A stretch of DNA of 58,056 bases from a virus (IMGVR_UViG_3300030906_000642:1-58056); one strand, 5' to 3'. Positions 8,001 to 54,983 are shown, counted from the stretch's first letter. Notes: generated from the letters alone by a model not told the origin. Numbers and translations are program-made.

Positions 8001-9953
8001 TCAATCCTTGAAAGGGTAGGCGCGGATGCGGGCGACGAGGGCCTCGACGGCGTCCAGGCTGCGCCCGGAAACTTCGGCGGCGCGCTTCATGTCGAGGCGG
8101 GTAATCCAGTGCTGGAACAAGGCGTCGAGGATGCCGAGCTCCGGCGCGTCCAGGCCGAAGACGTTCTTGCCCCTGGCCGGTTCGCCGGGGGCGGCGGGCA
8201 AGGCCTCGACCTCATGGCCTTCGCCGCCTTCTTCAGCCTCCATCTCCTCGCGCACCTCCCGCAACTGCTGCGAGAAGGCGTCGCCGGTCAGGCCCGGGAT
8301 GGCCTTCACCGGGGCGTTGAGCCACGCTGTGGCGTAGGGGCCAGAGCCGGCGACCTTGGCGCTCCAGGCGCCGTGGAATTCCGCGAGGTTGATGGGGTGC
8401 GGCAGGTCACCGTCCTCGCGGGCCTGCTTCAGCCAGCCCTCGCCGACGTCGGTGAGGTAGACTGCCCAGTCGGCGCCGCTCGGCTGCATCAGGCCGAGCA
8501 GCTTGAGGTTTCGGATCAGCGCCGACGCGGCGGCGCTGGAGGGCATGCCGTCGACCTTGGCGGCCCAGACACCGCCGCGCGCCGAGAAGCCTTTCTCCGC
8601 CAACTTGTGGCAGACCTCGGCCATGACCAGCATCTGGGGGTTGGAGAGGATCGGGATGTCGATGCGCGGCAGGTTGGGTGTGTCGCCGTGGGCGCCGACC
8701 GGCTCAGCCTGAGGCGATTGGGCGGTCGGCGTTTCGGGGGCAGCGACGCCGCGAACCGGGTTCGCGGGCGTCAGCGGTGTCTCGGTCGCCGCCGTGTTGA
8801 GCCAGTCGGTGAGGTATCGCCCGTCCCTGGCCAGGGCGCCGGCGGTGAGCGGTCCGGCGACGGCGTCGCGGAGGCGGTAGAGACAGTCGGCGCGTTCATC
8901 GACAAAGCCGATCTGGACGAACCAGACGGTCAGGTCCTGGTTGGCCCGCAGGCTGACGGACAGGGCGCCGTCGCGGCCCGACCGGGTGTCGATCATCTGG
9001 CGTTCGCGCAGGGTGGACAGGGCGCCGCCTTCACCCGGCTTTACGGCGATGAAGCCATTGACGTCGCCGGTGCGGTACTGGGCCGCGTCGGCAATCTCGG
9101 CCACCAGCACGGCCAGCTTGGGCGACAGGTCCAGCGCGGGCTTGGGCCTGCTCTCGGTGACATTGTCGCGCACCTCGCGATAGTTCTTTTCGCCGCTCTC
9201 CAAGGCGGCGAGGTCTTCCGGGGAAGCGCGGTTGAGCACCTTCAGCCGATCCTGGACCGTCTTGGCAAGCCGCCCGCTCTGGCGGGCGCATTCGGCGGCG
9301 GTCCAATGCTTGGCGTCACACAGCCGCTTGAAGGCGCGGGCCTCATCCAGTTCGCTCATCGGCGCGCCGGAGTTTTCCAGCAGGCCGATCAGGATCACCT
9401 CCTCCGCGTCGGCCGGGGCTTCCTCGACGGCCGGCATGGGCATGTCCGGGTCATAGCGGCCATCCTCGATCAATCTGCCGACAGCAAGCCAGCGGCGCTG
9501 GCCGGCGAGGATGAAGCGATGGCCGCCCACGCTGGGAGGTGTGACGATCAACGCATCCTTGACTCGGCCGACGGCGTCTATCGCGCCCATCAGCACCAGC
9601 AGCTCCTCCTCGTCGATGGCGTGGCGGGGATTGTCCGGATGGGGCGTCAGGTAGGCGTGCAGGACCTCGATCTCGCGGCCCTGGCGCTCACCGGCAGCCC
9701 CGTCCAGGCTGAGACGCCCCGCGCCGACGTCCATGGCCCGCAGCGCCAGATCCGCGCGGTCGGTAACCGTCAGGCCGTCGGCGCTGATAAGGCCCTCGTC
9801 CCGCAGCCGGCTGATGGTCTTGCTGAAGTTGGACTTGTCGCGCCCCAGTTCCTTGGCCAGGGCGGCTGGCGTGGCGGGGAGGTCGTCTTCCTTCAGGCGG
9901 CGCAGCAGGGGCTCGTTCTCGACGGCCAGGGGCGACAGGGGCGAGGCGTTCAT
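8001..9953 (-). CDS. wHTH + ParB/Spo0J-family DNA-binding protein (orphan, no ParA seen)
   Basis: N-terminal winged HTH (PAALAKELGRDKSNFSKTISRL), ParB box I PHPDNPR, box II ILAGQRRWLA, LLEN..., HTH WTAAECARQSGR..TVQDRLKVL, long C-terminal extension. Confidence 0.88.
   Translation of the reverse strand: MNASPLSPLAVENEPLLRRLKEDDLPATPAALAKELGRDKSNFSKTISRLRDEGLISADGLTVTDRADLALRAMDVGAGRLSLDGAAGERQGREIEVLHAYLTPHPDNPRHAIDEEELLVLMGAIDAVGRVKDALIVTPPSVGGHRFILAGQRRWLAVGRLIEDGRYDPDMPMPAVEEAPADAEEVILIGLLENSGAPMSELDEARAFKRLCDAKHWTAAECARQSGRLAKTVQDRLKVLNRASPEDLAALESGEKNYREVRDNVTESRPKPALDLSPKLAVLVAEIADAAQYRTGDVNGFIAVKPGEGGALSTLRERQMIDTRSGRDGALSVSLRANQDLTVWFVQIGFVDERADCLYRLRDAVAGPLTAGALARDGRYLTDWLNTAATETPLTPANPVRGVAAPETPTAQSPQAEPVGAHGDTPNLPRIDIPILSNPQMLVMAEVCHKLAEKGFSARGGVWAAKVDGMPSSAAASALIRNLKLLGLMQPSGADWAVYLTDVGEGWLKQAREDGDLPHPINLAEFHGAWSAKVAGSGPYATAWLNAPVKAIPGLTGDAFSQQLREVREEMEAEEGGEGHEVEALPAAPGEPARGKNVFGLDAPELGILDALFQHWITRLDMKRAAEVSGRSLDAVEALVARIRAYPFKD
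8751..8765. repeat. 15-bp palindrome copy 1 (GCGAACCGGGTTCGC), inside the parB-like gene
   Basis: Exact match; the inverted repeat extends to 8749..8767; read as ANPVR. Confidence 0.9.
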
Positions 9954-10156
9954 GCGGGGGCTTTCTCAGGCGAAAGGGCGGCTTTGGCCGCGCGCAGGGC
10001 GCGGATGGCGGATTGGGCTTGGCGCACCAGGTGCGGCGGCGCGGGCGTGAGGCCGGCGGGCACGTCGAAGACGACGAAGCCGTTGGCGGCGACGAAGATC
10101 AGGGCGTCGAGCTGGCCAGCGGTAAGCTCGATTGTGGCGGCGACCGGCGGCTTCAT
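9950..10156 (-). CDS. Small hypothetical phage protein
   Basis: ATGA overlaps at both ends. Confidence 0.55.
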   Translation of the reverse strand: MKPPVAATIELTAGQLDALIFVAANGFVVFDVPAGLTPAPPHLVRQAQSAIRALRAAKAALSPEKAPA

Positions 10157-10497
10157 GACTTGGGAAACCAGCCCACCCGCTGCAGATCGCGCAGGGCCGT
10201 GTTGGCGTCTGACGCGGTGATCCCGTCCCAGATCACAGCGAAGATCACGCCGGGGCCGATGGCGCTGTCGATGGCGCGGACCTCGACCTCATCGCGGGCG
10301 GCGCGGCAGGTGATGGCGTCTGGCGCGGCCCCAAGCCGGTCGCAGATCACCCGCATGGTTTCCTCGGGCGCCGGGCCGAACAGGCTGATGGTGTGGGCGC
10401 CCGGCCGGGCATAGCCGGTGAAGCGAATGGTGACGGTGGGTCCCTGGCGAAAGCTGGCGCACATGTGCGAACCGGGTTCGCTGTTGGGATCGGTCAT
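10153..10497 (-). CDS. Hypothetical phage protein
   Basis: MTDPNSEPGSH...; stop overlaps the next start; an alternative GTG start lies at 10554. Confidence 0.5.
   Translation of the reverse strand: MTDPNSEPGSHMCASFRQGPTVTIRFTGYARPGAHTISLFGPAPEETMRVICDRLGAAPDAITCRAARDEVEVRAIDSAIGPGVIFAVIWDGITASDANTALRDLQRVGWFPKS
10467..10481. repeat. 15-bp palindrome copy 2
   Basis: GCGAACCGGGTTCGC, exact; read as EPGS. Confidence 0.9.
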
Positions 10498-10556
10498 GAT
10501 CTGGCCGGCGAAGAAGGCGCCTTCGGCCCGGGCGCGGCGGGCGGAGGGCTGCACGG

Positions 10557-10943
10557 TCAGGCCTCCGCCAGCTGGGCGCGGAGCGTCGCCGTGTCGGGCA
10601 GGCGGATCGCCCCGCGCCGGACCACGATGTCCGTATGCCGGTAGCAGGCCATCCGCCGGGCCTTCAGCAACCGTTCGGCCACGTCGCTGCGGACGGCATA
10701 GAGCGGGTCGCGGCCGATGGCGTCGTTCAGCAGGCCGGCCTCGTCCGCCGTCAGGCGGAACCGATGGACGCCCGCGCGGCCAGCGATGACGATCCGCTGG
10801 CGGGCGCCGTCGACCACGATGAGCGGGACGAAGCGGATGCTGTCCGCGCCGCCTTCACCGGCGCGTTCCATCGCCAACAGCGCGGCGGTGACCACCTGGT
10901 TGCGGCGGTCGGCTTCGACGGAGGAGGGGGCGGCCCAGCTCAT
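10557..10943 (-). CDS. Hypothetical phage protein
   Basis: MSWAAPSS...; 1-bp overlap with the upstream stop. Confidence 0.55.
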   Translation of the reverse strand: MSWAAPSSVEADRRNQVVTAALLAMERAGEGGADSIRFVPLIVVDGARQRIVIAGRAGVHRFRLTADEAGLLNDAIGRDPLYAVRSDVAERLLKARRMACYRHTDIVVRRGAIRLPDTATLRAQLAEA

Positions 10944-11290
10944 CACAGCACCGCCGGATCGCGGCCGGCGTCGGGGTCGGCGATCAGGGGGCGGCGCAGG
11001 GCATAGTCGAGCGCGCCTTGCAGCCGGCCGACGGCGGCGTTCCCCGCGGACCCGTCCAGGAAGGCGTATCCAAGCAGGGCCAGGACGTTGCCGTCCTCGT
11101 CCAGGGCCTGGACCTCGACGACCGGACCGCACCGACGCCGCCCGCCGCGATCGGCCAGCGAACAGGCCTTGAGGCTGATGGTGTGATCCTCGCGCAGGTC
11201 GTGGATGCGCTCGGCGAGGCCGTCGGCGGAGAGGAAGGTCTCGTCCACCGCCAGCAGGGCGCGGGAAAAGGCATAGGGACGGCGTTGCAT
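10943..11290 (-). CDS. Hypothetical phage protein
   Basis: MQRRPYAF...; GGAG RBS upstream; tightly packed with neighbours. Confidence 0.55.
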   Translation of the reverse strand: MQRRPYAFSRALLAVDETFLSADGLAERIHDLREDHTISLKACSLADRGGRRRCGPVVEVQALDEDGNVLALLGYAFLDGSAGNAAVGRLQGALDYALRRPLIADPDAGRDPAVL

Positions 11291-12094: not shown

Positions 12095-12159
12095 TTTGCA
12101 AAAACTGTCAATCTGCGATTTGCAGAAAAAGCTAATTCACAATTTGCAAAAAGAGCGAA
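12095..12159 (-). promoter_or_regulatory. Leftward promoter PL with three operator sites (OL-like)
   Basis: TTTGCA at 12095, 12119 and 12143 (exact 24-bp period), each followed by N5 and a degenerate TGCAAA; perfect TTGACA on the minus strand at 12111..12106. Confidence 0.8.
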
Positions 12160-13005: not shown

Positions 13006-13653
13006 TTAGCCGCGCCCGAAGGACGCGCCGACTACGGCGTCCAGGGCCTCAACGTCGCGAAGCGGGAGCTTTAGCGCCTGCTGATCTTTCGGATTGAGCT
13101 GGGTCAGGAACAGGGTGTTGTCGTCCTGACGATCATAGAACTTCACCAGGGCGTCGCCGTTGTTCATGCGTATGACAGTGAGTTGGCCCTTGATCGGTCG
13201 CTGGTTGCGGTTTGCGTATCCAATCTCGCCGTCGTTCAGGCGCGGCGAGACGCTGTCGCCAAAACAAATGAAGGCATAGGCGTAGCGCGAGCCGATTTGC
13301 GCTGGATGGATCGGCACGACGCCCACCCGCTGATCATCGTTGATACGCAGCGTCGCCCCAGCGGCGTTCGCATAGCCGAATAGGGGGACCGCGTCGCCGG
13401 TTCCGGTCAGGTCGGGCGCCGCCGGTTCGTCCACCGGCGCGGCGACGAGTTCGCGCAGGGCGTCCATCTCGTCCGCCGCAATCTTTTGCGGGCCTGACGC
13501 CCTGCGACTGATGTCGTAGTTCTTGTAGGTCCTGCCGAGCCGCCTGCTCAGATAGTCGGCGATCTGCTGCTGTGTCCGCCCGGTCTGCTCGACCAGCTGG
13601 GCAAATTCGGCGTTTACGCCGGATGAGGCGACTTTGACGGATGCGCGGGCCAT
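13006..13653 (-). CDS. CI-like repressor (HTH + S24 autopeptidase)
   Basis: N-terminal HTH (TQQQIADYLS), AAG cleavage-site region, GDSVSP catalytic Ser motif, LVK Lys; divergent from the cro-like gene. Confidence 0.88.
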   Translation of the reverse strand: MARASVKVASSGVNAEFAQLVEQTGRTQQQIADYLSRRLGRTYKNYDISRRASGPQKIAADEMDALRELVAAPVDEPAAPDLTGTGDAVPLFGYANAAGATLRINDDQRVGVVPIHPAQIGSRYAYAFICFGDSVSPRLNDGEIGYANRNQRPIKGQLTVIRMNNGDALVKFYDRQDDNTLFLTQLNPKDQQALKLPLRDVEALDAVVGASFGRG

Positions 13654-13661
13654 GCGCCGTT

Positions 13662-13738
13662 GTTTTGCAGGAAATGCAAAACTTGGCGATTGACGCGTTT
13701 TGCAAATCACTTCAGCCGTCGTTTGCATCAATTGCAAA
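13662..13738. promoter_or_regulatory. OR-like operators and divergent promoters
   Basis: Perfect TTTGCA-N5-TGCAAA at 13664..13680 and 13722..13738, a half-site at 13699, and TTGACG -35 at 13690..13695. Confidence 0.85.
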
Positions 13739-13753
13739 TGGCAGAGCTGGTCC

Positions 13754-14029
13754 GTGAGCGCAACTCAAAAGATGGACGCCTTCGGCATGAAGGCCCTGGA
13801 GGAGGCGACAGGGAAGAACCTTGTCACTCTATATCGCTGGCGAAAAGCCCTCACCACGGGCGGGTCCATCAGTGATGACAACAAGCGCGCGCTGATCGCC
13901 GCAACCCGCGAGAGTGACCACGCCATCCAGATGGCGGACTTCTTCGCGGAGGAGATCGCCGCGCCTGCCGGCGAACCCGGTTCGCCCACCCCGGATGAAG
14001 TCGTCATCGCGGCCGGGAGGGCGTCATGA
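13754..14029 (+). CDS. Cro-like small regulator
   Basis: First rightward gene; HTH-like GMKALEEATGKNLVTLYRWR; start is GTG 13754 or ATG 13772. Confidence 0.7.
   Translation: MSATQKMDAFGMKALEEATGKNLVTLYRWRKALTTGGSISDDNKRALIAATRESDHAIQMADFFAEEIAAPAGEPGSPTPDEVVIAAGRAS
13971..13985. repeat. 15-bp palindrome copy 3, in the 3' end of the cro-like gene
   Basis: GCGAACCCGGTTCGC, exact; read as EPGS. Confidence 0.9.
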
Positions 14030-16268: not shown

Positions 16269-16822
16269 GCCTCCCCGATCCACGACCCTGGGTTCCGATT
16301 TCTCGGCCCCTCGACCTGAAGCATCTCGGCAAGCTGTCTGAAGAGCTGAGCGAGTGCATGGAAGCCGCAATGGCCTTCCTGGGCTGCCGCAGCGTCGGCG
16401 ACGACGCGCGGAACGGCAAGACTTTCAAGGTCTGGCTGGAGGATGAAATCGCCGACGTGGTTGCGAACATCAGCTTGGTCGAGCGGCATTTCGGCATGGT
16501 GGTTTCCTCGCATTCGGAAACCTGGGGCCGACCTCTGGCTCACGACGGGATGCTTGTCGGCCTGACCCGCCGGCTGGCGAAGGCCGGTCAGGCGACCGCG
16601 CGCTCGATCATCCAGGGCCTGGATGGCCGCGAGCCAACGACCGGGCTGCTGAACTTCGATTGGTTGGAGCAGCGGCTGCGCCGCTTGCCCGCGCCGATTT
16701 ATGCGGTGACCGAGGCTTACGGGCTGGACCGCGGGCGGATCAAGGTCCGCGCAGCGGCGAAGATGGCCCAGCTGCGCGTCTGGCACGCGATGCTGGCGGA
16801 AACCGATGGGGGGGGGCGGTGA
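16265..16822 (+). CDS. MazG-like (all-alpha NTP pyrophosphatase-like) protein
   Basis: KLSEELSEC...LEDEIADV acidic motif; the second half looks like a degenerate repeat. Confidence 0.55.
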   Translation: MSLPDPRPWVPISRPLDLKHLGKLSEELSECMEAAMAFLGCRSVGDDARNGKTFKVWLEDEIADVVANISLVERHFGMVVSSHSETWGRPLAHDGMLVGLTRRLAKAGQATARSIIQGLDGREPTTGLLNFDWLEQRLRRLPAPIYAVTEAYGLDRGRIKVRAAAKMAQLRVWHAMLAETDGGGR

Positions 16823-17052
16823 CGCTTTCAGCCGGCGGCAAGCCCATCAGCCAGATCGTCAACGAACTGGTGGAGATGGAATTCAAGGGCGACCTGATAG
16901 GCCTCGCCTGCGTGGCGGTCACCAAGGACGGTGACGCCCGCACACTGTTCGCCTTCGACGATGGCGGCAAGTTCGCCGTCTTCGCTGGAGTCGCGATGCT
17001 GCAGTCGTCGGTCATGGACGTTCTGCGCGGCAGCGAAGAGGTCGAGCCGTGA
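16819..17052 (+). CDS. Hypothetical phage protein
   Basis: GTGA coupling at both ends. Confidence 0.55.
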   Translation: MTLSAGGKPISQIVNELVEMEFKGDLIGLACVAVTKDGDARTLFAFDDGGKFAVFAGVAMLQSSVMDVLRGSEEVEP

Positions 17053-19607
17053 CCGCCTCGGACCCCTACACCCAGTTTCTGGAAGCCAAGGTCCGCATGG
17101 CGCCGTCGTCGGGGTTCGAGGTGCCGCTGTCGGAACTGCATCCGTCGCTGCTGGCCAAGGGGCATCAGGCGGCGTCGGTGCAGTGGGCGGCGCGGGGCGG
17201 CCGGCGGGCGATCTTCGCCGCCTTCGGCCTGGGCAAGACGCGCATGCAGATTGCGCTCCTCAACTGCATCAGGTCGCGGGTGGACGGGGCCTCGCTGCAG
17301 GTGATCCCGCTCGGCGTACGCGACGAGTTCATGCAGGAGGCGGAGGCCTTGGGCGTCTCGCTGAACTGGATCAGGTCCACCGACGAGGTGCGGGAGGACA
17401 TGATCAACCTAACCAATTACGAGCCGGTGCGGGACGGTGCGGTCGATCCGCGGCGTTTCAAATCGGCCTCGCTGGACGAGGCGTCGGTGCTGCGCTCGTT
17501 CGGGTCCAAGACCTATCAGACCTTCCTGCCGCTGTTCGCCGAGACGCCGTTTAGGTTCGTGGCCACGGCGACGCCGTCGCCCAACCGCTTCAAGGAGCTG
17601 ATCCACTACGCCGGCTATCTGGGCGTCATGGATACCGGGCAGGCGCTGACGCGGTTCTTTCAGCGCAACCCGAAGAAGGCCGGCGACCTGACCCTCTATC
17701 CGCACAAGGAGGAGGAGTTCTGGCTGTGGGTTTCATCCTGGGCGCTGTTCATCCAGCGGCCGTCCGACCTGGGCTTCTCGGACGAGGGCTATGACATGCC
17801 GCCGCTGGACGTGCGCTGGCACGAGGTTCCCGCCAGCGCGGCGGCGATGGACCATGTGGAGTCGGACGGACAGCGGTCGCTGATCCCGGAAATGGCGCAG
17901 GGGCTGGTCGAGGCGTCGGCGGAGAAGCGGGCGTCGATCCCGGCGCGGGTGGCCAAGGTGGTTGACCTGGTGGCGCGCGAACCCGGTTCGCACCGGATCA
18001 TCTGGCACGACCTGGAGGATGAGCGGAAGGCGCTGGAGGCGGCGTTTCCGGGCGCGGTGAGTGTCTATGGCACGCAAGAGCTTGAGGCGCGGGAAGAGGC
18101 GATCCGGGGCTTTTCACAAGGCTGGTTCGACACCCTGTCGACCAAGCCGGTGCTGTGCGGCTCCGGCTGCAATTTCCAGAAGCATTGCCACTGGGAAATC
18201 TTCGCCGGGGTGGGGTTCAAGTTCAACGACTTCATCCAGGCCATCTATCGGGTGCAGCGGTTTGGCCAAAAGCATCCCGTGCGGATCGACATCATCCATA
18301 CCGAGGCGGAGCGGGAGACGGTCCGCATCCTGAAGGACAAGTGGGCGCGGGACACCGAGCTGCGAGGGCGGATGAGCGCCATCATCCGCCAGTATGGGCT
18401 GAACCAGCTGGCCATGGCCGAGGTGCTGACCCGGTCCATGGGGGTGGAGCGGATGGAGGCCAGCGGCCCCTCTAGCAAAGAATGGGTCTGGAAGGTGGCG
18501 CTAAACGATTGCGTGCTCGAGGCTCAAGGGATGGACGAGGCGAGCATCGACCAGGTGGTCACCTCCATCCCGTTTTCGAACCACTATGAGTACACGCCGA
18601 AGTACGAGGATTTTGGGCACACCGAGAGCGACGATCACTTCTTCGCCCAGATGGATCACCTGACGCCGCAGTTGCTGCGGGTGCTGAAGCCCGGCCGGGT
18701 GGCCTGCATCCACGTCAAGGACAGGATCCTGTTCGGATCGGTGACCGGGCAGGGGGTGCCGACGGTGAACCCCTTCCACGCCAAATGCATCTTTCACTAC
18801 CTCGGCCACGGCTTTCAGTACCTGGGCATGCACGAGGTGCTGACCGACGTCGTGCGGGAGAACAATCAGACCTACCGCCTCGGCTATACCGAGATGTGCA
18901 AGGACGCGACCAAGATGGGCTGCGGCTCGTCGGAGTTCGTGTTGCTGATGCGGAAGCCGCAGTCGGATCGGAGCCGCGGCTATGCCGACATGCCGGTGGA
19001 GCGTCAGAAGGCCGACTACAGCCTGGCGCGCTGGCAGACCGACGCTCATGCGTTTTGGCGCTCCAGCGGCGATCGCCTGATCACGCCGGAGGAGGCGCAG
19101 GCGCTGGTGACCGGCGGCGAGGGCGGCATGGCCCGGCTGATGGCGCTCTGGTCCGAAGCGAGCCTTAGGACCGTCTACAGCTACGAGCACCACATCAAGA
19201 TCGGCGAGGCGCTGGAGCTGCTGGGCAAGCTGCCGGCGACCTTCATGGCGCTGGCGCCCACCAGCTGGTCGGACAGGGTCTGGCATGACGTCAACCGGCT
19301 GAAGACGCTGAATACGGCGCAGGCGTCGGCCGGGAAAGAGAAGCACATCTGCCCGCTGCAGTTCGACATCGTCGACCGGCTGATCCAGCGGTACTCGAAC
19401 CCGGGCGAGCTGGTGTTCGATCCGTTCTGCGGCCTGGGCACGGTGCCGCTGAGGGCCATGAAGCTGGGGCGGCGCGGCTGCGGCTCGGAGCTGAACGGCG
19501 ACTATTGGCGCGACAGCGCGAACTATCTGCGGGCGGCCGAAGACGAGGTCCAGGCGCCGACGCTGTTCGACCTGATAGCGGGCGAAGTGGAAGGGGCGGC
19601 GGCGTGA
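17049..19607 (+). CDS. SF2 helicase-like domain fused to an amino (N4C/N6A) DNA methyltransferase
   Basis: GLGKT, LDEAS, TATPSPN and QAIYRVQRFGQ (SF2); TSIPF motif IV variant precedes DPFCGLGT motif I (beta-class order). Confidence 0.9.
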   Translation: MTASDPYTQFLEAKVRMAPSSGFEVPLSELHPSLLAKGHQAASVQWAARGGRRAIFAAFGLGKTRMQIALLNCIRSRVDGASLQVIPLGVRDEFMQEAEALGVSLNWIRSTDEVREDMINLTNYEPVRDGAVDPRRFKSASLDEASVLRSFGSKTYQTFLPLFAETPFRFVATATPSPNRFKELIHYAGYLGVMDTGQALTRFFQRNPKKAGDLTLYPHKEEEFWLWVSSWALFIQRPSDLGFSDEGYDMPPLDVRWHEVPASAAAMDHVESDGQRSLIPEMAQGLVEASAEKRASIPARVAKVVDLVAREPGSHRIIWHDLEDERKALEAAFPGAVSVYGTQELEAREEAIRGFSQGWFDTLSTKPVLCGSGCNFQKHCHWEIFAGVGFKFNDFIQAIYRVQRFGQKHPVRIDIIHTEAERETVRILKDKWARDTELRGRMSAIIRQYGLNQLAMAEVLTRSMGVERMEASGPSSKEWVWKVALNDCVLEAQGMDEASIDQVVTSIPFSNHYEYTPKYEDFGHTESDDHFFAQMDHLTPQLLRVLKPGRVACIHVKDRILFGSVTGQGVPTVNPFHAKCIFHYLGHGFQYLGMHEVLTDVVRENNQTYRLGYTEMCKDATKMGCGSSEFVLLMRKPQSDRSRGYADMPVERQKADYSLARWQTDAHAFWRSSGDRLITPEEAQALVTGGEGGMARLMALWSEASLRTVYSYEHHIKIGEALELLGKLPATFMALAPTSWSDRVWHDVNRLKTLNTAQASAGKEKHICPLQFDIVDRLIQRYSNPGELVFDPFCGLGTVPLRAMKLGRRGCGSELNGDYWRDSANYLRAAEDEVQAPTLFDLIAGEVEGAAA
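17977..17991. repeat. 15-bp palindrome copy 4, inside the helicase-MTase gene
   Basis: GCGAACCCGGTTCGC, exact; read as EPGS. Confidence 0.9.
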
Positions 19608-27887: not shown

Positions 27888-28075
27888 TGACCGCCGCCCC
27901 TGCGCGAACCGGGTTCGCTGATCGCATCCTCGGTCTGGCGGTCGATGTCGCCATCCCGGCGGGCGCGTTGCTGATCACCTTCGGCGTCTGGCAGTTGAAC
28001 CATCCGGCGGCCTTCATCGTCGGCGGCGCCTTCCTGCTGGCCGGCGGCTGGATCGCGGCGCGGAAAGGCGCGTAA
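27887..28075 (+). CDS. Small two-TM protein preceding the portal
   Basis: 62 aa, hydrophobic; 1-bp overlaps at both ends. Confidence 0.7.
   Translation: MTAAPARTGFADRILGLAVDVAIPAGALLITFGVWQLNHPAAFIVGGAFLLAGGWIAARKGA
27904..27918. repeat. 15-bp palindrome copy 5
   Basis: GCGAACCGGGTTCGC, exact; read as RTGF. Confidence 0.9.
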
Positions 28076-38255: not shown

Positions 38256-38510
38256 ATGTCCCACGCCGACACCGTCAACAACTGGTTCCGCGAGCGCCTG
38301 TCGGGCGGCCCGATCGCGCAGCACACCCCGGCCTATAACCAGCTGGTCGAGGCGCTGCCGGACCTGATCACCCGCCTTGAGGTCAAGCTTGCCGCCGCTG
38401 CCGATGATGCGAACCCGGTTCGCGCCGCGCCGGCCAAGGCCGCTAAGGCGCCCCCGGCGGGTGCGCCGGCCGCCCCGCTCGCCGGCGCCAAGCCCGACGC
38501 AGCCGCTTAA
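38256..38510 (+). CDS. Small hypothetical tail-region protein
   Basis: GAGGAG RBS; 84 aa. Confidence 0.6.
   Translation: MSHADTVNNWFRERLSGGPIAQHTPAYNQLVEALPDLITRLEVKLAAAADDANPVRAAPAKAAKAPPAGAPAAPLAGAKPDAAA
38409..38423. repeat. 15-bp palindrome copy 7
   Basis: GCGAACCCGGTTCGC, exact; read as ANPVR. Confidence 0.9.
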
Positions 38511-40529: not shown

Positions 40530-43436
40530 ATGACCAACAATATCGCGGTCTCGATCACCGCCGACGTCGCCGATCTGACCGCCAAGCGGGCCATCGCCTC
40601 CACCGAACTGAAGGCGCTGCAGAAGGATCTGAACGACCTCGCCAAGACCGCCAGGGATGGCGGCATGACCGACGAGCTGAAGGCCAGGATGTTGGCCCTT
40701 GGCGACGGGGTGGCCAAGGCCAAGAGCCAGGTCAGCCAGATCGATACGCAGCTGAAGACCTTCGGCCGGACCGCCAATGAGACCGGGGCAGCGGTGGGCG
40801 GCCTGCACGCCGGCACGGCCGGCGTCACCCGTGAACTGCTGGTGATGGGCCGCGAGGCCAGCCGGGGCAACCTCAACCGCCTGGCCGGCTCGGCGACCAT
40901 TCTCGCCGGGCGGCTGGGCCTGCTGACCCCGCAGATCCTGATGGTGGTTGGCGGGGTTCTGGCCCTGGCCGCGCCGGTCGTCTTGGTCGCCGCCGCGATG
41001 GAGTCCGCCGCCAACGACGCCGCCAAATACCAGGGCGCCCTGTCGGCCACCGCCAACTACGCCGGCCTCACCGCCGCCAGCTATCGTGACATGACCAGCG
41101 CGCTGGCCGTCTCCTCGCATATCGGCTTGGGGGAGGCCCGCAAGGAGCTGCTGGACCTAATCAACACCGGCAAGTTCAGCGGCGCGGAGATGCTGCTGAT
41201 CGGCAAAGACTCCAACGCCATGTCGGAGATGACCGGCGAGTCCGCGGACAAGATGTTGTCCGAGTTCGAGAAGATGGGCGACGATGTCGCCAAGTTCGCC
41301 CGGGAGTATCAGGACCACTATCACCAGCTGACCACGGCCCAGTTCGAACACATCGAGGCCTTGCAGAAGGCCGGTGATGTCGAAGGCGCGCAGATGGCCT
41401 TCCTGCAGGCGGTCTACGGCTACCTCGGCAATCAGGCGCCGCGCCAGGTCGGGGCGCTGAAGAGCGCCTGGGACGATCTGACCATCGCGATTGGCGGGGC
41501 CGTGGACGCCGAGAAAAACTATGTTGCCGGTCAGGGCGACACGGCCGCCACACAGATCGCCAAGTCCAAGGCGGCCCTGTCCGAACTCTATGGCGAGAAG
41601 CTGCGTCAGCAGCACGGGGATGACGTCGGCATCTCGCCGGGGCTGCTGGATGAGCGCATCGCCGGCGGCGAGAAAATGCTGGCCTCGCAGCAGGCCTTGG
41701 CCGCCGCCACGGCCAAGACGGCCCAGGACGAGCGCGACAAGGCCAAGGCCCAGACCGAGGGCGTCGATGCGGCGGCCAAGCTGAACGAACAGTTCGAGGC
41801 GTCCAAGACCTCCGGCGAAAAGCTGAAGAAGACCCTGGCGGACATCAACCTGGAGCTGGCGCGCGCAACCGCGGCCGATCCGGGGAACAAGGCCCTCTAC
41901 GAGCAGGAAGCCGCCGCCGCGCGGTCTCAGGCGGTCAAGTCCGATACGCCCCATGCGGCCAAACCGAAGAATGACGAGGTGCAGGTCTGGCAGGAGGAGC
42001 TGCAAACCAAACTCGAGGACGAAAAGGCCTATTTCGGAGACTCCAAGGCGGAGGAACAGAAGTTCTGGACTGACAAGCTGGCCCTGACCACGGCCGGCTC
42101 GTCCCAGCAGCGGGCGGTGAAGACCAAGCTCTATGACCTCGATCGCGACCTGGCGCGGCAGGCCTATGCCGACCAGCTCGCCAGCCTGAACGATCGACTT
42201 GAGGCCGACCGGGGCAACTGGTCGAAACAGCAGGCCGAGTGGGCGACCAAGCTGGCCTTCATCAAGGCCAGTTACGGCGCGCAGAGCAGCGAATACACGA
42301 ACGCCCAGCGCGAGGAGGAGGCCGCCGAGCGCGAGCATCGCTCGACCATGGCGCAGATCCAGCGCGACGCTGAGGCGACCAGCGTGGAGCAGCTGAAAAG
42401 CACGCTTGCCGCCAACAAGACCATCCGCGATGAGGACGCCAGGACCCAGGAGGCTGTAACCCGCGCCAAGGGTTCCGGTTCACCGGTCGGGGAAATCCAG
42501 GCGGCTGTCCAGATCGCCGCCCAAGCGAGGGCGGCCCGCGCCGCCGACCTTGCCGACACCGCGACCACCTACCAAGCCGAGAATGCGCTGCTTCAAGCGG
42601 CGGTGGCCAGGGCCACGGTCAGCTACGGCACGGACTCCAAACAGTACGCCGACGCCCTGAAGGCCAAGCAGGAGGCGGATCAGGCCTATTACGACAAGCG
42701 CCGGGTCATGGAGGATCAGGCGACCCAGCAGTCGATCCGCGACGCGCAGGACATCCAGCAGAAATGGATGGGGATCACCCAGCCGATCGGTTCGGCCATG
42801 AGCGGGATGTTCCAGGGCATGGCCCTGCACCAGCAGACCTTCTCCCAGGCCGCTCTGAAGGCCGGCGACCAGCTGCTGTTCAAGTTCATCGACGTTGAGG
42901 TCCAGGACCTGGAGAAATGGACCGCGACCCAGCTGGCCAAGACGGGCCTGATCAAGACCCAGTCCACCATGCAGGGCCTGGCCCAGGCGGCGGCGGCCAG
43001 CAATACGGCGGTCACCCAGAAGGCGGCCGACCTTGCGGCGGTCACCGGTTACGCCGGTGTCGCCGCCGCCGCGACTTTCGCGGCCTATTCACCCGAGGCC
43101 GCCGCTGATCCGGCGCTGCCCGGCGAAATGGCGGCGGCGGCCTACGGCCAAGCCATGTCGATGGGTTCGTTTGCCAAGGGCATCGACGTCGTCCCGCGGA
43201 ACATGATCGCCCAAATTCACGCTGGCGAACGGATCATGCCGGCGGCCGACAACAGCGCCATCATGGACGCGGTCGGCGCTGGCAAGGGCGGCGGAAGGGG
43301 TGGCGCATCGGTTAACAACACCTTCAACAACAACTTTCACGGCGTCTCCCACGATCCGCATGAGTTGGTCAGCGCGATGATGCCGCTGATCATGGAACGG
43401 TTCGAGAAGATGAAGCGGCGGGGCATGCTCGGATGA
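40530..43436 (+). CDS. Tape measure protein
   Basis: 968 aa, Ala-rich helical; C-terminal FAKG..VPRNMIAQIHAGERIMPA motif. Confidence 0.92.
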   Translation: MTNNIAVSITADVADLTAKRAIASTELKALQKDLNDLAKTARDGGMTDELKARMLALGDGVAKAKSQVSQIDTQLKTFGRTANETGAAVGGLHAGTAGVTRELLVMGREASRGNLNRLAGSATILAGRLGLLTPQILMVVGGVLALAAPVVLVAAAMESAANDAAKYQGALSATANYAGLTAASYRDMTSALAVSSHIGLGEARKELLDLINTGKFSGAEMLLIGKDSNAMSEMTGESADKMLSEFEKMGDDVAKFAREYQDHYHQLTTAQFEHIEALQKAGDVEGAQMAFLQAVYGYLGNQAPRQVGALKSAWDDLTIAIGGAVDAEKNYVAGQGDTAATQIAKSKAALSELYGEKLRQQHGDDVGISPGLLDERIAGGEKMLASQQALAAATAKTAQDERDKAKAQTEGVDAAAKLNEQFEASKTSGEKLKKTLADINLELARATAADPGNKALYEQEAAAARSQAVKSDTPHAAKPKNDEVQVWQEELQTKLEDEKAYFGDSKAEEQKFWTDKLALTTAGSSQQRAVKTKLYDLDRDLARQAYADQLASLNDRLEADRGNWSKQQAEWATKLAFIKASYGAQSSEYTNAQREEEAAEREHRSTMAQIQRDAEATSVEQLKSTLAANKTIRDEDARTQEAVTRAKGSGSPVGEIQAAVQIAAQARAARAADLADTATTYQAENALLQAAVARATVSYGTDSKQYADALKAKQEADQAYYDKRRVMEDQATQQSIRDAQDIQQKWMGITQPIGSAMSGMFQGMALHQQTFSQAALKAGDQLLFKFIDVEVQDLEKWTATQLAKTGLIKTQSTMQGLAQAAAASNTAVTQKAADLAAVTGYAGVAAAATFAAYSPEAAADPALPGEMAAAAYGQAMSMGSFAKGIDVVPRNMIAQIHAGERIMPAADNSAIMDAVGAGKGGGRGGASVNNTFNNNFHGVSHDPHELVSAMMPLIMERFEKMKRRGMLG

Positions 43437-45611: not shown

Positions 45612-48284
45612 TTGTCCCTGTTCGCCGGCAACCAGAGCCCCACCAACGCGCCGATCAACTACACCGGGCTGAACGTCGGCTCGTCGCAGTGGAACGCGCC
45701 TGTCCCGATCTTCTGGGGCATGCGGCGGCTGTCCACCAACGCCGCCTGGTTCGGCAACTTCTCCGCCAAGTCGGAAGGCGGCAAGGGCAAGGGCGGCGGC
45801 GGCAAGGGCGACCAGCAAAAGACCTACACCGCCTCGGTGGTGCTGGGCCTGTGCGAGGGGCCCCTCGACGCCACCGATCCGGTCGGCAACATCTGGGCCA
45901 ACGGCTCGACCACCACCACCACCACCCTGTCGGCCATGAATATGGTCCTGGCCCTCGGTACGACCGAACAGGCGCCCTGGAACTATCTGGTCGACAATTA
46001 CCCCGACGCGGCCCTGGCCTATTCCCAGCTGGCCTACCTGGGCGCCATCAACCTCGGCCTGGGGGAAAGCGCGACGATCCCGGACAACGGGTTCGAGTGC
46101 AAGCGAACCCTGGACTTCGCCTTTGTGAACTCCACCCACGCCAGCGGCTGGATCAACCCCAACTCGCACACCCAGTCGCTGGGCGTCGACTGCCTGATGA
46201 GCGACATCATCCCCGACCTGCTGACCAATGTTCAGTACGGGATGAGCTTCAACGCCGGCGACCTGGGCGACATGACCCAGTACGCCACCTATCAGCGGGC
46301 GCAGGGGATATTCTTCTCGCCGCTACTGAACAGCCAGGAGAAGTGTACCGAGATCCTCGATCGCTGGGCCATGCTGTCCAATGCATGGATCTATTGGGCC
46401 GGGACCGCGATCAATTTCGTGCCCCTGGGCGACAGTGTCGTCACCGGCAATGGCGTCACCTATACCCCCGATGTCGATGTCGCCTATGACCTGGACTACG
46501 ACGACTTCCTGCCCGGCAGCGGCAAGGACGACGGCCCGGTCAAGGTCACCCGCATCGACCCGGCGGACGCCCACAACCGCACCGCCCTGGATTTCACCGA
46601 CCGCACCCTGGCCTACATCGATAACCCGGTCGAATGGAAGGATGACGGCCTTGTCGATCAGTATGGGCTGAGGGACAATTCCAGCACCGAGGCGGACGAA
46701 ATCTGCGACCCGGCGGTGGCCAAGGTCGTGGTGCAGTTGCTGGGCAAGCGCAACGCCTACATCCGCAACACCTACACCTTCAAGACCAGCTGGCGCTTCA
46801 TCCTCTGCGTGCCCGGCACAATCCTAACGCTGACCGAGCCGAATATCGGTCTCGATCATGTCCGGGTGCGGGTTCAGAAGGTTAGCGGCGACGAAAAGGG
46901 CCAGCTCAGCTTCATCTGCGAGGAATTCCCCGGCAACGTCGGCACCTATTATCCGGCGGTGGCGGCCGCGGCGATCACCGCCCCGACCACGCCGATCCTC
47001 AACATCCCGCCCGGCAATGTGAACACGCCGGCGATCATCGAGCCGGACTCATCCTTCACCGCCGGCACCCCCCAGATCATCATCGCCGCATCCGGCGGCG
47101 TCGCCTGGGGCGGCTGCACGGTCAACATCAGCTTCGACGGGGTCAACTACAGTCAGATCGGCGTGATCAACGCCTCAGCCAAACAGGGCCTGCTGACATC
47201 CGCCCTGGCGGCCTATGGCGGGGACAATCCGGACACGGCCGACACCCTGGCCGTGGACTGCACCGAAAGCCTGACCCTGCCAACGCCGGTCAGCAACGAC
47301 GACGCCACGGCCCTGCGGACCCTGTCTCTGGTGGCGGCCCAGCCGACCCTGGTGGGCGACGCCTACGAGGTTCCGAACAATGGCGAGCTGCTGGCGTTCG
47401 GATCGGTCACCTCCACGGCCACCTATGCCGCCAACCTGACCTATCTGCAGCGCGGCGCCTACGGCACCGCGCCGGGCGCGCACGGCGTCGGCGACCAGTT
47501 CACCCTGCTGGACGTCACCGGCACGGACGGGACCTCGGTGGCTTACGATCTGCCGGCCCAGTACATCGGCCAAGTCCTGTATCTGAAACTGGCCTCGTTC
47601 AACGTCTTCGGCCAGGCGTCGCAGGATCTCTCCACCGTCGCGGAATACCAGTACACGCCGACGGGCGCGGGCTTTGGCGGCGGCACGGTCGGCGCGCCGC
47701 TGGAGCCTACCGGATTCGGGCTGCTGGGATCGCCGGGCGCCACCAGCGTGCCGCTGGCCTGGACCGCCAACCAGAGCAGCGACAATGTCACCCGCTACAC
47801 GGTGTGGCGGGCGCCCGGCGCCAGCGCGGCCTTCAGCTCGGCCTCGGAGATCTGGTCGGGGCTGGCCCTGGCCTATACCGACGGCGCGGTGGCGGCCAAC
47901 ACCGCCTATACCTACTTCCTGACCGCCAACAATTCGGTCGGTGGCTCGCCCAACACCGCCGGGGTGAACGCCACCACGAGCGCGTCCATGACCGGCTCGA
48001 CGACTCTCGTCACGGCCGCCTCGTCTCCGCTCAGCCTGGGCGTCGCCCCGGGCCTGACCTGGTACGTCGATGTCAACAACACCGCCGGCGCGCCGTTGCA
48101 GATCAACCTGCCGACCGGAGCCCCGGTGGTCGGCCAGCGGATCGTCATCACCGACGCTGGCGGGAACGCCACCACCAACGCCTTCACTATCAAGGCGGGG
48201 GCCACGACGATCGACACCGTCAATATCAGCAACGGCTGGTCCGTGGTGCGCTGGAACGGGTCGGCCTGGCTGAGGAGCGCGTGA
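45612..48284 (+). CDS. Central tail-tip / host-specificity protein with FN3-like domain
   Basis: TTG start; PVPIFWG, GKGGGGK, GLCEGP, LQRGAYGT, LYLKLASFN, FN3-like LAWTA..YTVWR..YTYFLTA. Confidence 0.85.
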   Translation: MSLFAGNQSPTNAPINYTGLNVGSSQWNAPVPIFWGMRRLSTNAAWFGNFSAKSEGGKGKGGGGKGDQQKTYTASVVLGLCEGPLDATDPVGNIWANGSTTTTTTLSAMNMVLALGTTEQAPWNYLVDNYPDAALAYSQLAYLGAINLGLGESATIPDNGFECKRTLDFAFVNSTHASGWINPNSHTQSLGVDCLMSDIIPDLLTNVQYGMSFNAGDLGDMTQYATYQRAQGIFFSPLLNSQEKCTEILDRWAMLSNAWIYWAGTAINFVPLGDSVVTGNGVTYTPDVDVAYDLDYDDFLPGSGKDDGPVKVTRIDPADAHNRTALDFTDRTLAYIDNPVEWKDDGLVDQYGLRDNSSTEADEICDPAVAKVVVQLLGKRNAYIRNTYTFKTSWRFILCVPGTILTLTEPNIGLDHVRVRVQKVSGDEKGQLSFICEEFPGNVGTYYPAVAAAAITAPTTPILNIPPGNVNTPAIIEPDSSFTAGTPQIIIAASGGVAWGGCTVNISFDGVNYSQIGVINASAKQGLLTSALAAYGGDNPDTADTLAVDCTESLTLPTPVSNDDATALRTLSLVAAQPTLVGDAYEVPNNGELLAFGSVTSTATYAANLTYLQRGAYGTAPGAHGVGDQFTLLDVTGTDGTSVAYDLPAQYIGQVLYLKLASFNVFGQASQDLSTVAEYQYTPTGAGFGGGTVGAPLEPTGFGLLGSPGATSVPLAWTANQSSDNVTRYTVWRAPGASAAFSSASEIWSGLALAYTDGAVAANTAYTYFLTANNSVGGSPNTAGVNATTSASMTGSTTLVTAASSPLSLGVAPGLTWYVDVNNTAGAPLQINLPTGAPVVGQRIVITDAGGNATTNAFTIKAGATTIDTVNISNGWSVVRWNGSAWLRSA

Positions 48285-48289: not shown

Positions 48290-49186
48290 ATGGAACACCC
48301 GATGATGCGAACCCGGTTCGTTTTGGCGGTGCTGCTGTGCGCCGCCTCATGCCACACCGTGCCCGCTTACGCCGGCCAGGTCCCGACCCCGGTCAATGCA
48401 CCAGCTTCCGTAACCGCCGGCGACGCGCTAAGCGCCACGTCCAATCCGCAGCAGGCGGCGGACAGCGGTGTCAGCCTGAGCGCTGCGGGGCAGAACAAGG
48501 TCCTTGCCGGCCCATCTTCCGGCGGCGCGGGCGCGGCAGCCTTCCGCGCCCTGACCAACGCGGACATGCCGTCCACCGGCCCCGGCGCCGGCTCGGTCAG
48601 CAGCGTGGGTCTGACCGCGCCGGTGGAGTTCACCGTCAGCGGCGCCCCGGTCACCGCCGCCGGCACCCTGGCGATCGCCAAGGCCACCCAGTCCGCCAAC
48701 AGCATCTGGGCTGGCCCATCTTCCGGCTCCGCCGCGCAACCCGGGTTCCGGGCGCTGGTCTCCGCCGACATGCCGGCCACGGGCGCCGGCAGCGGGACGG
48801 TCATGAATGTCGGCCTGACCAGCTCGTCGACCGCTTTCAGCATCACCGGCTCGCCGGTCACCAGTTCGGGAACCATCACCCTGGGGGTAGCGACCCAGAG
48901 CTCAAACCAGGTGTGGGCGGGTCCGACCTCCGGCTCGCCACTGCGGCCGGCCTTTCGCGCGCTGGTGGCGGCCGATATCCCGTCGCTGGCGACGCTCTAT
49001 GCACCCAGCGCCGTCACCACGGCGACCACGGTCGCGGGGTTGCCCGCGCCTTCCTTGGCGGCCCGTGGCTTCGTCACAGATTCGACCCTGCCGCTCACCG
49101 GAACCAATCTCGGCGCCGCGGTCGTGGGTGGCGGCGCGAACAAGGTCCCCGTCTATTCCGACGCGACCGCCTGGTACATCGGCTGA
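48290..49186 (+). CDS. Fibre-repeat protein with signal peptide
   Basis: MMRTRFVLAVLLCAASCHTVPAYA; three AGP(S/T)SG..FRAL..AD(M/I)P repeats; C-terminal GGGANKVPVYSD..W.IG; exact start uncertain (48281/48290/48302). Confidence 0.72.
   Translation: MEHPMMRTRFVLAVLLCAASCHTVPAYAGQVPTPVNAPASVTAGDALSATSNPQQAADSGVSLSAAGQNKVLAGPSSGGAGAAAFRALTNADMPSTGPGAGSVSSVGLTAPVEFTVSGAPVTAAGTLAIAKATQSANSIWAGPSSGSAAQPGFRALVSADMPATGAGSGTVMNVGLTSSSTAFSITGSPVTSSGTITLGVATQSSNQVWAGPTSGSPLRPAFRALVAADIPSLATLYAPSAVTTATTVAGLPAPSLAARGFVTDSTLPLTGTNLGAAVVGGGANKVPVYSDATAWYIG
48307..48321. repeat. 15-bp palindrome copy 8 (one mismatch: GCGAACCCGGTTCGT)
   Basis: 14/15 match at the start of the fibre gene; read as RTRF. Confidence 0.8.
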
Positions 49187-53007: not shown

Positions 53008-53093
53008 CCATCACGCAATCTGGGGACAAAAGCGCCCCTGATCTGACCGGCCAGAAGCCGAGTGGGCCAGAGCGCCCAATCGAAAGCCTACAC

Positions 53094-53664: not shown

Positions 53665-53822
53665 AACGCCGAAGCTGCGCCGGCTGATAGGCGCGGAAGC
53701 TGGGCTCGCCCAGCCGAGCGGGTGGAAGGCCCGCACCTCATCAATCTCCGACCACACCCATCCCGGCGCACCCCGCGCCGAGACGAGGGCCATTGCGCCC
53801 ACAACCTGAAGAGAACCGCACC

Positions 53823-54176: not shown

Positions 54177-54239
54177 CCCCTCGGGCGCTCGCGCCCGTCT
54201 CGATGCGGCTGCGCCGGTGGCGGTGCTGGCCGCAGTCGC

Positions 54240-54285
54240 GCGCCCCGGCCTTTCCCTCCCCTGTGAGGCCGGGGCGCAGTTTTTT
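54240..54285 (+). terminator. Intrinsic terminator inside the lysis region
   Basis: gcgccccggcct / aggccggggcgc 12-bp stem followed by agtttttt. Confidence 0.7.
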
Positions 54286-54298
54286 CGAAAGATCACCG

Positions 54299-54961
54299 AT
54301 GACCGACATCCTTGCGCCGGCGGTCTCGCCGTCCAACGCCATCAACGACCCGTCGAAGACCCTGCGGGATTTCGCGCTGGCGGACCTGGCTCAATACACG
54401 CCCGAGCGGACGCCTGACCCCAACGCCAGCAAGGACGTGCAGCTGTTCCTGGTCGGCAAGGATGACGTGCACGATGTGCTAAAGCACCTGCTCAGCCGCG
54501 CCTCGATCTGCATCCACCTCAATATGTTCGGCTATGACGATGAAGAGCTGAACACGATCCTCATGGCCAAGGCCATGGACCCGAACGTCTATGTGTTCAT
54601 CACCCTGGACCTGAGCCAGGCCGGCGGAAAGCACGAGGCGGCGCTGATCGCCCTCGATCGCCAGATGAACCTCGCCGCGTTCAACACCCACTTCGCGATC
54701 GGTCAGTCCGCGACACATTCCATCAGCCACACCAAAGGCGCCGTGCTTGACAACCGCGTCGTGTTCCAGGGCTCGGTCAACTGGTCCAGGGACGGGGAGG
54801 GGACCTTCGTCACCCGGGGCCAGCCCGGCGGCGTTGGCTACAAGGCCCAGAACAATACCCTGGACGTCATCCTCGACCTGGGTATTGCCGCGCGCTTCCA
54901 GGCCAGGCTGAGCGACGAACACCTGATCGCCGTCAAACAGCAACTGGCGAAGGCGGCCTGA
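54299..54961 (+). CDS. Phospholipase D superfamily protein (single HKD; Nuc/MitoPLD-like)
   Basis: SHTKGAVLDNRVVFQGSVNWS = HxKxxxxD..GSxN; QNN; no signal peptide. Confidence 0.85.
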   Translation: MTDILAPAVSPSNAINDPSKTLRDFALADLAQYTPERTPDPNASKDVQLFLVGKDDVHDVLKHLLSRASICIHLNMFGYDDEELNTILMAKAMDPNVYVFITLDLSQAGGKHEAALIALDRQMNLAAFNTHFAIGQSATHSISHTKGAVLDNRVVFQGSVNWSRDGEGTFVTRGQPGGVGYKAQNNTLDVILDLGIAARFQARLSDEHLIAVKQQLAKAA

Positions 54962-54968
54962 TCGCGCC

Positions 54969-54983
54969 GCGAACCCGGTTCGC
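54969..54983. repeat. 15-bp palindrome copy 9 (intergenic)
   Basis: GCGAACCCGGTTCGC, exact, in the 30-bp gap after the PLD gene. Confidence 0.9.

Follow-up and report, generated by a model that had tools for sequence, protein, structure and literature searches.

The dispersed palindrome of an integrating temperate phage is probably the parS-like site of its own orphan ParB-family protein

We analyzed a 58,056-b provirus record, a stand-alone entry of IMG/VR (IMGVR_UViG_3300030906_000642, here called the window), in which the 15-bp palindrome GCGAACC(C/G)GGTTCGC is dispersed. A 52-bp att repeat in a tRNA-Cys gene, together with an integrase gene, defines a 56-kb prophage integrated at tRNA-Cys. 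On comparative evidence, the palindrome is probably the parS-like recognition site of a ParB-family protein without a partner that is encoded by the prophage itself (P0001, 8001-9953, minus strand). The pairing of this gene with dispersed sites recurs, with four variants of the site, in many otherwise unrelated phages. We therefore regard it as rather likely that the two form a clamp-and-site system of the ParB-parS, KorB-OB, or BisD-bisS type, acting genome-wide in integrating temperate phages and existing in four natural site classes. The central idea of the first-pass annotation, that these are the sites of the prophage's own orphan ParB, held when the motif was counted in host chromosomes and in records without the gene; the earlier interpretation as a whole was supported in part.

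Eight exact copies of the palindrome were found in the window, whereas dinucleotide shuffles contained a mean of 0.01 (n = 100, none of which reached 8). When up to 2 mismatches were allowed, a single extra copy appeared at 48307 (14/15, the last C being replaced by T), giving a total of nine against 0.49 expected. The first-pass annotation had reported eight exact copies and one 14/15 copy, far above chance, and the same coordinates were recovered here. It had also noticed copies in the prophage and none in the host flanks; all nine lie between attL and attR, at a mean spacing of about one per 5.8 kb across the 56-kb prophage. No conservation was found outside the 15 bp among the nine copies. 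Therefore, the repeat is a bare site and not a mobile mini-element. With the gene calls used for the window, which are crude calls based on GC content at third codon positions (GC3), seven of the nine copies fall within open reading frames (ORFs) and two are intergenic (48307 and 54969), rather than eight and one as counted earlier. The use of three reading frames was confirmed: the seven embedded copies are read as ANPVR (three), EPGS (three), and RTGF (one).

A scan of IMG/VR for the motif returned at least 116 stretches carrying it. The five records taken first, the contigs showing most copies among the matches listed, had 6 to 9 copies each at ≤1 mismatch (4 to 6 of them exact) and no control matches. 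A P0001 homologue was present in all five, with 30-36% identity over about 300 residues. At a blastp E value of 1e-5, all five had a homologue of the ParB gene, which was true of no other window gene; each of the others was found in two at most. Another 50 records were taken from the motif scan without regard to ParB. A gene of the ParB family was found in 7 of the 11 that had at least three exact copies, in 0 of the 3 with two copies, and in 2 of the 36 with one copy; one of these last two matches was strong and probably belongs to another site class, and the other was a weak, generic ParB. Combined, 12 of the 16 IMG/VR records with at least three copies encode the ParB family. The remaining four are fragments: G470 (18.9 kb), G472 (23.4 kb), and G477 and G503, which represent one phage type. 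The latter two begin 0.8 kb beyond a CI-like repressor; their leftward ORF is open at its end, and an integrase is missing. None of the four includes the arm that holds ParB in the window. PF02195 searches of records without ParB were blank, which is uninformative, because this model also misses the window's own ParB gene in six-frame mode. In records not truncated at the left arm, ParB was found in 8 of 8. Persistence of the motif without the ParB gene, which the first-pass annotation had named as evidence against the pairing, was thus seen only in multicopy fragments lacking the ParB arm. In the relatives, the ParB gene lies a few genes upstream of an integrase-sized gene, and its neighbors vary: the adjacent family seen most often was present in 11 of 41 loci and has no member in the window. 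No conserved neighbor or partner family, and no conserved small partner gene, was found beside ParB across the 41 loci.

The left host flank (an NMO gene) was about 80% identical across Alpha-, Beta-, and Gammaproteobacteria, and the right flank, with the same tRNA-Cys synteny, had its best match in the genome G004 (70% identity). The family of G004 was taken as the likely host family, and 301 of its genomes were scanned. The motif was found in none of 5 proteobacterial genomes and, in a phylum-wide sample, in 4 of 401 genomes, with one copy each, compared with 7 of 401 for a reversed control. In the G004 family, 34 of the 301 genomes carried the motif and 7 carried the reversed control. There was one copy in 24 of the motif-bearing genomes, there were two copies on different contigs in 2, and 3-8 copies in 8. 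All eight genomes with at least three copies had one cluster each, of 15-35 kb, holding most or all of them (5 of 5 within 24 kb in G777, 6 of 6 within 35 kb in G582, 6 of 6 in G763, 3 of 3 in G600, 3 of 3 in G617, 5 of 6 in G631, 6 of 7 in G677, and 7 of 8 in G650). At ≤1 mismatch in three lysogens (11.7 Mb), 27 of 34 sites lay in clusters of about 40 kb, and 7 lay outside, against 5 matches of the reversed control. The motif is therefore about as rare in host chromosomes as its reversed control, and in the genomes searched, relatives of the window's host, the palindrome is not a host repeat. One genome of these samples, G388, carries an unpublished flag, and none of the claims depends on it. 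Five of the lysogen clusters were compared with the ParB family. The best match fell within the cluster or at its edge in four of them, and in the fifth (G777) it was some 10 kb away; a site was inside the ParB gene in 3 of the 5. Two of the lysogens also encode a second full-length winged-helix ParB member (G582:C7:208671-209540 and G650:C25:8140-9165, E ~1e-45), presumably from second prophages and possibly with another site class.

By its sequence, P0001 belongs to the ParB/Spo0J superfamily, having a domain with GxxRxxA and the box III Asn that is followed by a helix-turn-helix (HTH). It is composed of an N-terminal MarR-like winged helix (residues ~10-80), a ParB N-terminal nucleotide-binding domain with GQRRWLA, a ParB HTH (~200-250), and a long C-terminal region (~350 aa) of no known fold family. 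The earlier label of winged-helix ParB was clear in Pfam for the winged helix; ParB_N (E 0.005) and HTH_ParB (E 0.0016) were both below the Pfam cut-offs, and the ParB identity is carried instead by PHROGs, a family profile, and the fold. PHROG 1033, "ParB-like partition protein," matches P0001 at 4e-11, and a phmmer comparison with Caulobacter crescentus ParB gave 3.5e-8. A profile built from 27 family members was compared with the Protein Data Bank and matched Spo0J at 1e-53, C. crescentus ParB at 2e-48, Noc at 7e-48, and KorB at 2.5e-18. The matches to ParB and Noc chains cover query positions 90-280, which comprise the nucleotide-binding and HTH DNA-binding domains, and with the N-terminal 100 residues a match to SlyA/MarR was obtained at 3e-5. 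The AF2 model of P0001 (pLDDT 79) was matched by Foldseek to Noc, a ParB-parS complex, and KorB at 4e-9 to 1e-7, with an rmsd of 3.9 over 174 columns for the ParB-parS complex 6t1f. The kinship with KorB proposed earlier is weak, since the profile is much closer to ParB and Noc, and no Pfam KorB domain was found in P0001. The GxRRWxA and box III Asn residues (G151, R154, W155, A157, and N194) are invariant in the 27 members. The nucleotide-binding region aligns with those of C. crescentus and Myxococcus xanthus ParB, and the phosphate-binding equivalents R110, R154, and N194 are retained.

The absence of a ParA partner was confirmed: neither PF13614 nor PF01656 gave a match at E values up to 0.1 in six frames of the whole window, and both models match all 14 control genomes. 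Single-protein pattern searches found no relatives of P0001 in genome contigs or viral contigs, and tblastn gave no match in cultured phages and only 4 weak ParB matches in plasmids. A Protein Atlas look-up returned only generic ParB-like clusters, all with scores below 0.9. The motif Y-x-T-[PDA]-W-L-N occurs twice in the C-terminal half of P0001, which is otherwise poorly conserved (~385-392 and 541-548), and is kept in several relatives.

An alignment-based scan gave 80 loci with ParB relatives, and the exact window motif was present in 3 of 50 of their records. Repeated palindromes were searched for within 10 kb on each side of the loci. Allowing up to 2 mismatches produced GC-rich noise (125 matches in control loci); therefore, exact 7-N-7 palindromes alone were used. 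Four half-site classes were found: A (GCGAACC), B (GCGAACG), C (GCGAGCG), and D (GCGCACG), the half-site of class B being one position away from each of the other three. Of the 37 best ParB loci, 24 received a class from the counts at the locus (A, 4; B, 9; C, 3; D, 8), and a further 3 from counts over the whole record. A repeated exact 7-N-7 palindrome was found in 1 of 80 control host loci (1.25 Mb). Whole records showed one dominant site class per phage, for example, class C in G411 (a 50.5-kb genome bearing terminal repeats, where 12 exact sites and 15 core sites were counted), class D in G423 (8 sites), class B in G419 (4 exact and 9 core sites), and class A in G425 (6 exact and 9 core sites). 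Distant matches, which share only the ParB core and mostly have lower GC, had no repeated palindromes except at L276, L291, and L295.

On a ParB tree of 42 N-terminal regions, with 9 rows each for classes A and B, class D was clustered and class C was beside it; A and B were interspersed, and both occurred in both deep clades. With all site labels considered, the tree required 18 changes, compared with 24.5 after shuffling, and this was matched or beaten in 1 of 200 shuffles. The co-variation of palindrome and ParB, which the first pass had asked to be checked, was found in that the relatives carry one of four palindromes, but it is loose because classes A and B are interspersed. L231, a class A protein, is placed with good support as sister to two class B proteins. 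Residues separating class A from class B were sought in the HTH and the winged helix, and none held. The recognition helix of the winged helix is conserved over all classes, and some members with sites have no winged helix (G469 and L291), so the winged helix is not needed for the association of ParB with sites. In these two (L300:1981-4095, minus strand, in G469; L291:9662-11797), a Lys/Ala/Pro-rich, histone H1-like tail replaces the winged helix, and class A sites are present.

We next compiled the layout of the sites from 124 core sites in 16 whole records. The bias toward a central C on the coding or transcribed strand, noted in the first pass, is present in the window (8 of 9 copies) but not beyond it: in the 75 sites within called genes of the 16 records, the coding-strand base was C in 36, G in 33, T in 4, and A in 2. 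The strand bias is therefore not a property of the system, and the sites have no orientation. All three codon phases are used by gene-embedded sites (43, 17, and 15). The sites were spaced more evenly than at random: in 14 of 15 records, the gaps had a coefficient of variation smaller than the mean of the simulations (Fisher P = 8.6e-11), G503 being left out as a near-copy of G477; in G407, for instance, nine sites are separated by gaps of 3.6-6.5 kb, and the window alone gave a P value of 0.059. A gene boundary was found within 50 bp of 45% of 109 sites, compared with 16% of random positions, and 40 of the 109 were outside called genes, with 15 expected; these counts leave out G469, G449, and G503 and use crude GC3-based gene calls. 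In 15 of 28 loci, compared with 8 expected, the ParB ORF itself contained a site, usually within its first 150 codons, and the loci without one mostly had a site within 1.5 kb upstream.

Several observations weigh against assigning the palindrome to P0001. P0001 is a divergent family member with its ParB domains under the Pfam cut-offs, and a six-frame PF02195 search of the window found nothing, the P0001 gene included. On the tree, 7 changes are required for class A and 7 for class B, a result equaled or bettered by 64-65 of 500 label shuffles, and class A proteins have widely different predicted recognition helices. For chromosomal ParB-parS, one conserved site across deeply diverged ParBs is normal, so the wide spread of class A may be ancestral. 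In the exact-palindrome scan of whole or nearly whole records of relatives, no dispersed palindrome was found in G432 (100% complete), G433 (57%), or G443 (55%), and two other phages, G415 and G436, were ambiguous. G415 (L336-L337) has 4 copies of GCGCGCG-N-CGCGCGC and G436 (L338-L339) has 14 copies of CGAGC-N-GCTCG, which may be further site classes or only GC-rich noise. The statement that ParB is the only common gene holds at the stricter threshold (E 1e-5) alone: under lenient clustering (E 1e-4, single linkage) of 17 records, the tape measure protein was found in 16, and a replication protein, a CI-like repressor, and ParB were each found in 15. Finally, the residues of P0001 that align with Q52 and E93 of M. 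xanthus ParB, described as CTP-hydrolysis residues (PMC13229309), are N108 and Q152. These substitutions, with the phosphate-binding equivalents kept, suggest nucleotide binding without efficient hydrolysis. P0001 and its closest relative, P0002, have GQRRW in place of GERRW, and most relatives keep GERR; P0001 is thus a natural "hydrolysis-site" variant in a family otherwise keeping GERR.

Some of these observations would also be explained if another DNA-binding protein, of the phage or of the host nucleoid, bound the palindromes and ParB merely traveled with the lineages. We consider this unlikely, although it fits the presence of class A and B sites in distant ParB clades with dissimilar recognition helices, the three ParB-family phages without a palindrome, and the CI-like repressors and replication protein in 15 of 17 leniently clustered records. 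No other gene was common to the motif-bearing phages at E 1e-5, and the neighbors of ParB vary. CI has its own distinct operators, and two phages (G408 and G469) have sites but no CI-like gene. A host factor in particular would fail to explain why the sites are absent from host chromosomes and why phages of one host family carry different site classes.

Far less probable is that the palindromes are targets of a DNA modification or restriction-related activity, exerted by C5 or N6/N4 methyltransferases or by a ParB-directed apparatus. Such a role for phage ParB-like proteins, directing DNA-modifying enzymes, has been proposed (PMC6536676, PMC13229309), and the window encodes both a C5 methyltransferase, two genes after ParB, and a helicase/N6-N4 methyltransferase fusion. 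However, the five other class A records contain no homologue of either methyltransferase, and an exact 15-bp palindrome at a spacing of about 5 kb is unlike methyltransferase targets. The ParBs associated with 5mYOX are without a DNA-binding domain (PMC13229309), whereas the P0001 family has one. Both window enzymes have features of their own. In the 732-aa C5 methyltransferase, the Pfam domain covers only residues ~38-221 and PHROG matches reach residue 712, so that the protein is unusually long or split. Within the fusion gene, the DNA at 17468-17832 is 76-78% identical to Arthrobacter and Mycobacterium phage genes, which is unexpectedly high across phyla.

An RNA or DNA hairpin, acting as a terminator or RNA stability element, is highly improbable. 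A 6-bp stem with a 3-nt loop is possible, the 48307 copy is followed by TTTT, and the 8751 copy lies in a longer inverted repeat (8741-8775, ~13 pairs) with a fold z-score of -3.9. However, the other three of the four sites that were folded were no more stable than shuffles (z -0.4 to -0.5), 8 of the 9 sites have no T-run, the sites within genes occupy all three frames, and the central base is without strand bias. This reading was therefore rejected. A genome-wide host repeat, such as a REP-like or uptake sequence that the prophage merely shares, can practically be dismissed for the genomes searched, because host-family genomes have 0-1 copies outside the prophage clusters, a rate like that of the reversed control.

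The coordinates of the sites and of the surrounding features are given in Table 1.

Table 1. Palindrome copies and other features of the window
Feature	Position	Strand	Remarks
attL (left prophage boundary)	1207-1258		Exact 52-bp direct repeat of 57254-57305
Tyrosine integrase gene	1316-2569	-	Adjoins attL
C5 cytosine methyltransferase-domain protein	5553-7751	-	732 aa
Orphan ParB-family gene (P0001)	8001-9953	-	650 aa
Site 1	8751-8765		Exact; within ParB gene; ANPVR, low-confidence linker, residues 397-401; inside longer inverted repeat
Site 2	10467-10481		Exact; close to 5' end of ORF 10153-10554(-); EPGS
TCCAGG-N-CCTGGA, copy 1	11100-11112		
CI-operator-like repeats	12095-12159		Three imperfect repeats, 24 bp apart; head of leftward early operon
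CI	13006-13737	-	
Site 3	13971-13985		Exact; close to 3' end of ORF 13700-14029(+); rightward early side of CI/cro-type switch
TCCAGG-N-CCTGGA, copy 2	16611-16623		
Helicase/N6-N4 methyltransferase fusion gene	17049-19607	+	Contains site 4
Site 4	17977-17991		Exact; within the fusion gene
Site 5	27904-27918		Exact; start of 62-aa ORF between terminase large subunit gene (25731-27566) and 28075-29451
Site 6	30626-30640		Exact; within ORF 30062-31282(+); ANPVR
TCCAGG-N-CCTGGA, copy 3	36494-36506		
Site 7	38409-38423		Exact; within ORF 38256-38510(+); ANPVR
TCCAGG-N-CCTGGA, copy 4	42901-42913		
Site 8	48307-48321		14/15 (last C = T); intergenic, 23 bp past stop of 45612-48284(+)
Site 9	54969-54983		Exact; intergenic, 8 bp past stop of 54203-54961(+)
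attR	57254-57305		52-bp att repeat; overlaps 3' part of tRNA-Cys
tRNA-Cys gene	57260-57333	-	

The interval between CI and the rightward ORF contains the CI-type operator in two perfect copies. As stated in the first pass, the palindrome is unrelated to the CI operator: the CI-type operators at the switch region have a different sequence. A second dispersed palindrome, TCCAGG-N-CCTGGA, has four copies in the window, compared with 0.01 expected, and its core was also seen two times at L290, a distant ParB locus. Another DNA-binding protein may recognize this palindrome.

Known systems share parts of this arrangement. Chromosomal ParB/Spo0J-parS and Noc-NBS resemble P0001, by sequence and fold, in the nucleotide-binding domain with GxxRxxA and the HTH. 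As in the window, chromosomal ParB-parS has a palindromic site of 15-16 bp, with several copies inside genes, including in or beside parB; in Bacillus subtilis, parS lies within spo0J. Noc has no ParA partner and many dispersed sites. P0001 differs from chromosomal ParB and Noc in being encoded by an integrating temperate phage without ParA, in the extra N-terminal winged helix of most members, and in its C-terminal region of no known family. The phage sites are also distributed evenly over the whole element rather than clustered near an origin, and they have a different sequence, in four variants.

KorB-OB of the IncP plasmid RK2 resembles the window in having a dispersed palindrome with a central G/C, about one per 5 kb over a mobile element of about 60 kb. 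Many OB sites are far from promoters, and the KorB clamp exerts its effect over long distances. Its partners are IncC, which is a ParA, and KorA, which locks the clamp, whereas no ParA was found in the window and no conserved small partner gene in the 41 loci (KorA homology itself was not searched); moreover, the element here is a phage and not a plasmid. The stoperators of Cluster A mycobacteriophages lack symmetry, point in the direction of transcription, and serve as binding sites for the immunity repressor. The window sites, in contrast, are palindromic and have no orientation bias, and CI has separate operators. What Cluster A stoperators have in common with the window is many copies of a short site across a temperate phage, inside genes (PMC4351075).

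The Cluster O mycobacteriophages, such as Corndog, have more than 30 invariant 17-bp palindromes (7-N3-7) throughout the genome, mostly away from promoters and without strand orientation, and they encode a protein with a ParB-like domain (PMC4351075). Their half-site has a GTTCG core in common with the window palindrome. The authors of that report named no definite binding protein and drew no link between the sites and the ParB-like gene (PMC4351075). Those phages appear lytic and their sites are denser (PMC4351075), and similarity to P0001 was not detectable in cultured phages. In BisD-bisS, the integrative conjugative element ICEclc likewise has a ParB-like CTP clamp of the orphan type, borne by a mobile element that is integrated (PMC12409273). 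The bisS sites are parS-like palindromes with a central "n" inside genes, BisD spreads over tens of kilobases, and it acts on transcription when ICEclc activates (PMC12409273). There are only two BisD sites, separated by 2 kb, and BisD possesses a C-terminal activator domain and works with a partner, BisC (PMC12409273), whereas the phage family has 5-15 evenly spaced sites and no conserved partner gene in the 41 loci. In the temperate phage N15, SopB has four separate palindromic centromere sites, IR1-IR4, instead of one array (PMC7205306). N15, however, is a non-integrating linear plasmid-prophage with SopA, and its sites serve partition (PMC7205306); the window phage integrates and has no ParA. 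Orphan ParB-fold proteins are common or enriched on prophages according to a 2025 survey, the part of which used here names no DNA targets (10.1101/2025.10.10.680097). In the literature, supplementary files aside, we found no paper linking phage-wide palindromes to an orphan ParB in integrating phages.

As for how the system would work, ParB dimers are predicted to recognize the palindrome through the ParB HTH domain, to close around the DNA as nucleotide-dependent clamps, and to slide outward. Close and even loading sites would let ParB cover the entire phage chromosome, and this coating would take place after induction or infection. The leftward ORFs behind the three CI-operator-like repeats run through ParB to the integrase gene. 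The 19 sequencing runs listed for this early region were all DNA-type peat metagenomes, with no RNA run among them. From the position of the ParB gene in this leftward early operon, behind CI-type operators, we infer early, CI-repressed expression, and production of ParB following induction or infection is more probable than production in the lysogen. Because of this gene position, silencing in the lysogen is unlikely, and the earlier proposal that the palindrome forms a second control layer of lysogeny was not sustained. Plasmid-type segregation is unlikely too, because there is no ParA and the phage integrates; with regard to ParABS, no ParA partner was found, and the element is an integrated prophage, not an extrachromosomal replicon. 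The most likely role, judged from these considerations, is a genome-wide control or organization of phage DNA. The outcome could be long-range control of transcription, as with KorB and BisD, or the marking, protection, or compaction of replicating phage DNA.

A more specific version of this role is possible but doubtful, namely, a self-marking "phage chromatin" in which a clamp loaded at sites every 3-6 kb coats phage DNA only and the site variants serve as specificity or incompatibility groups. The clamp would load right after induction or infection and so tell phage DNA from host DNA, for the purpose of protection, compaction, or genome-wide control of transcription. Through classes A to D, relatives that co-infect a cell or are resident in it would be able to avoid each other or to interfere. 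With both hydrolysis residues replaced in P0001, its clamps may be unusually long-lived.

With these results, one orphan ParB family is assigned a concrete predicted DNA target and an even, genome-wide layout of sites. The four site variants, which differ by single half-site positions, would provide a system for studying how ParB-type clamps change their DNA specificity, as well as the function of a segregation-type clamp on a phage for which segregation is not required. The pairing of such a protein with dispersed sites may also explain other phage palindromes for which no explanation has been given, such as those of the Cluster O mycobacteriophages.

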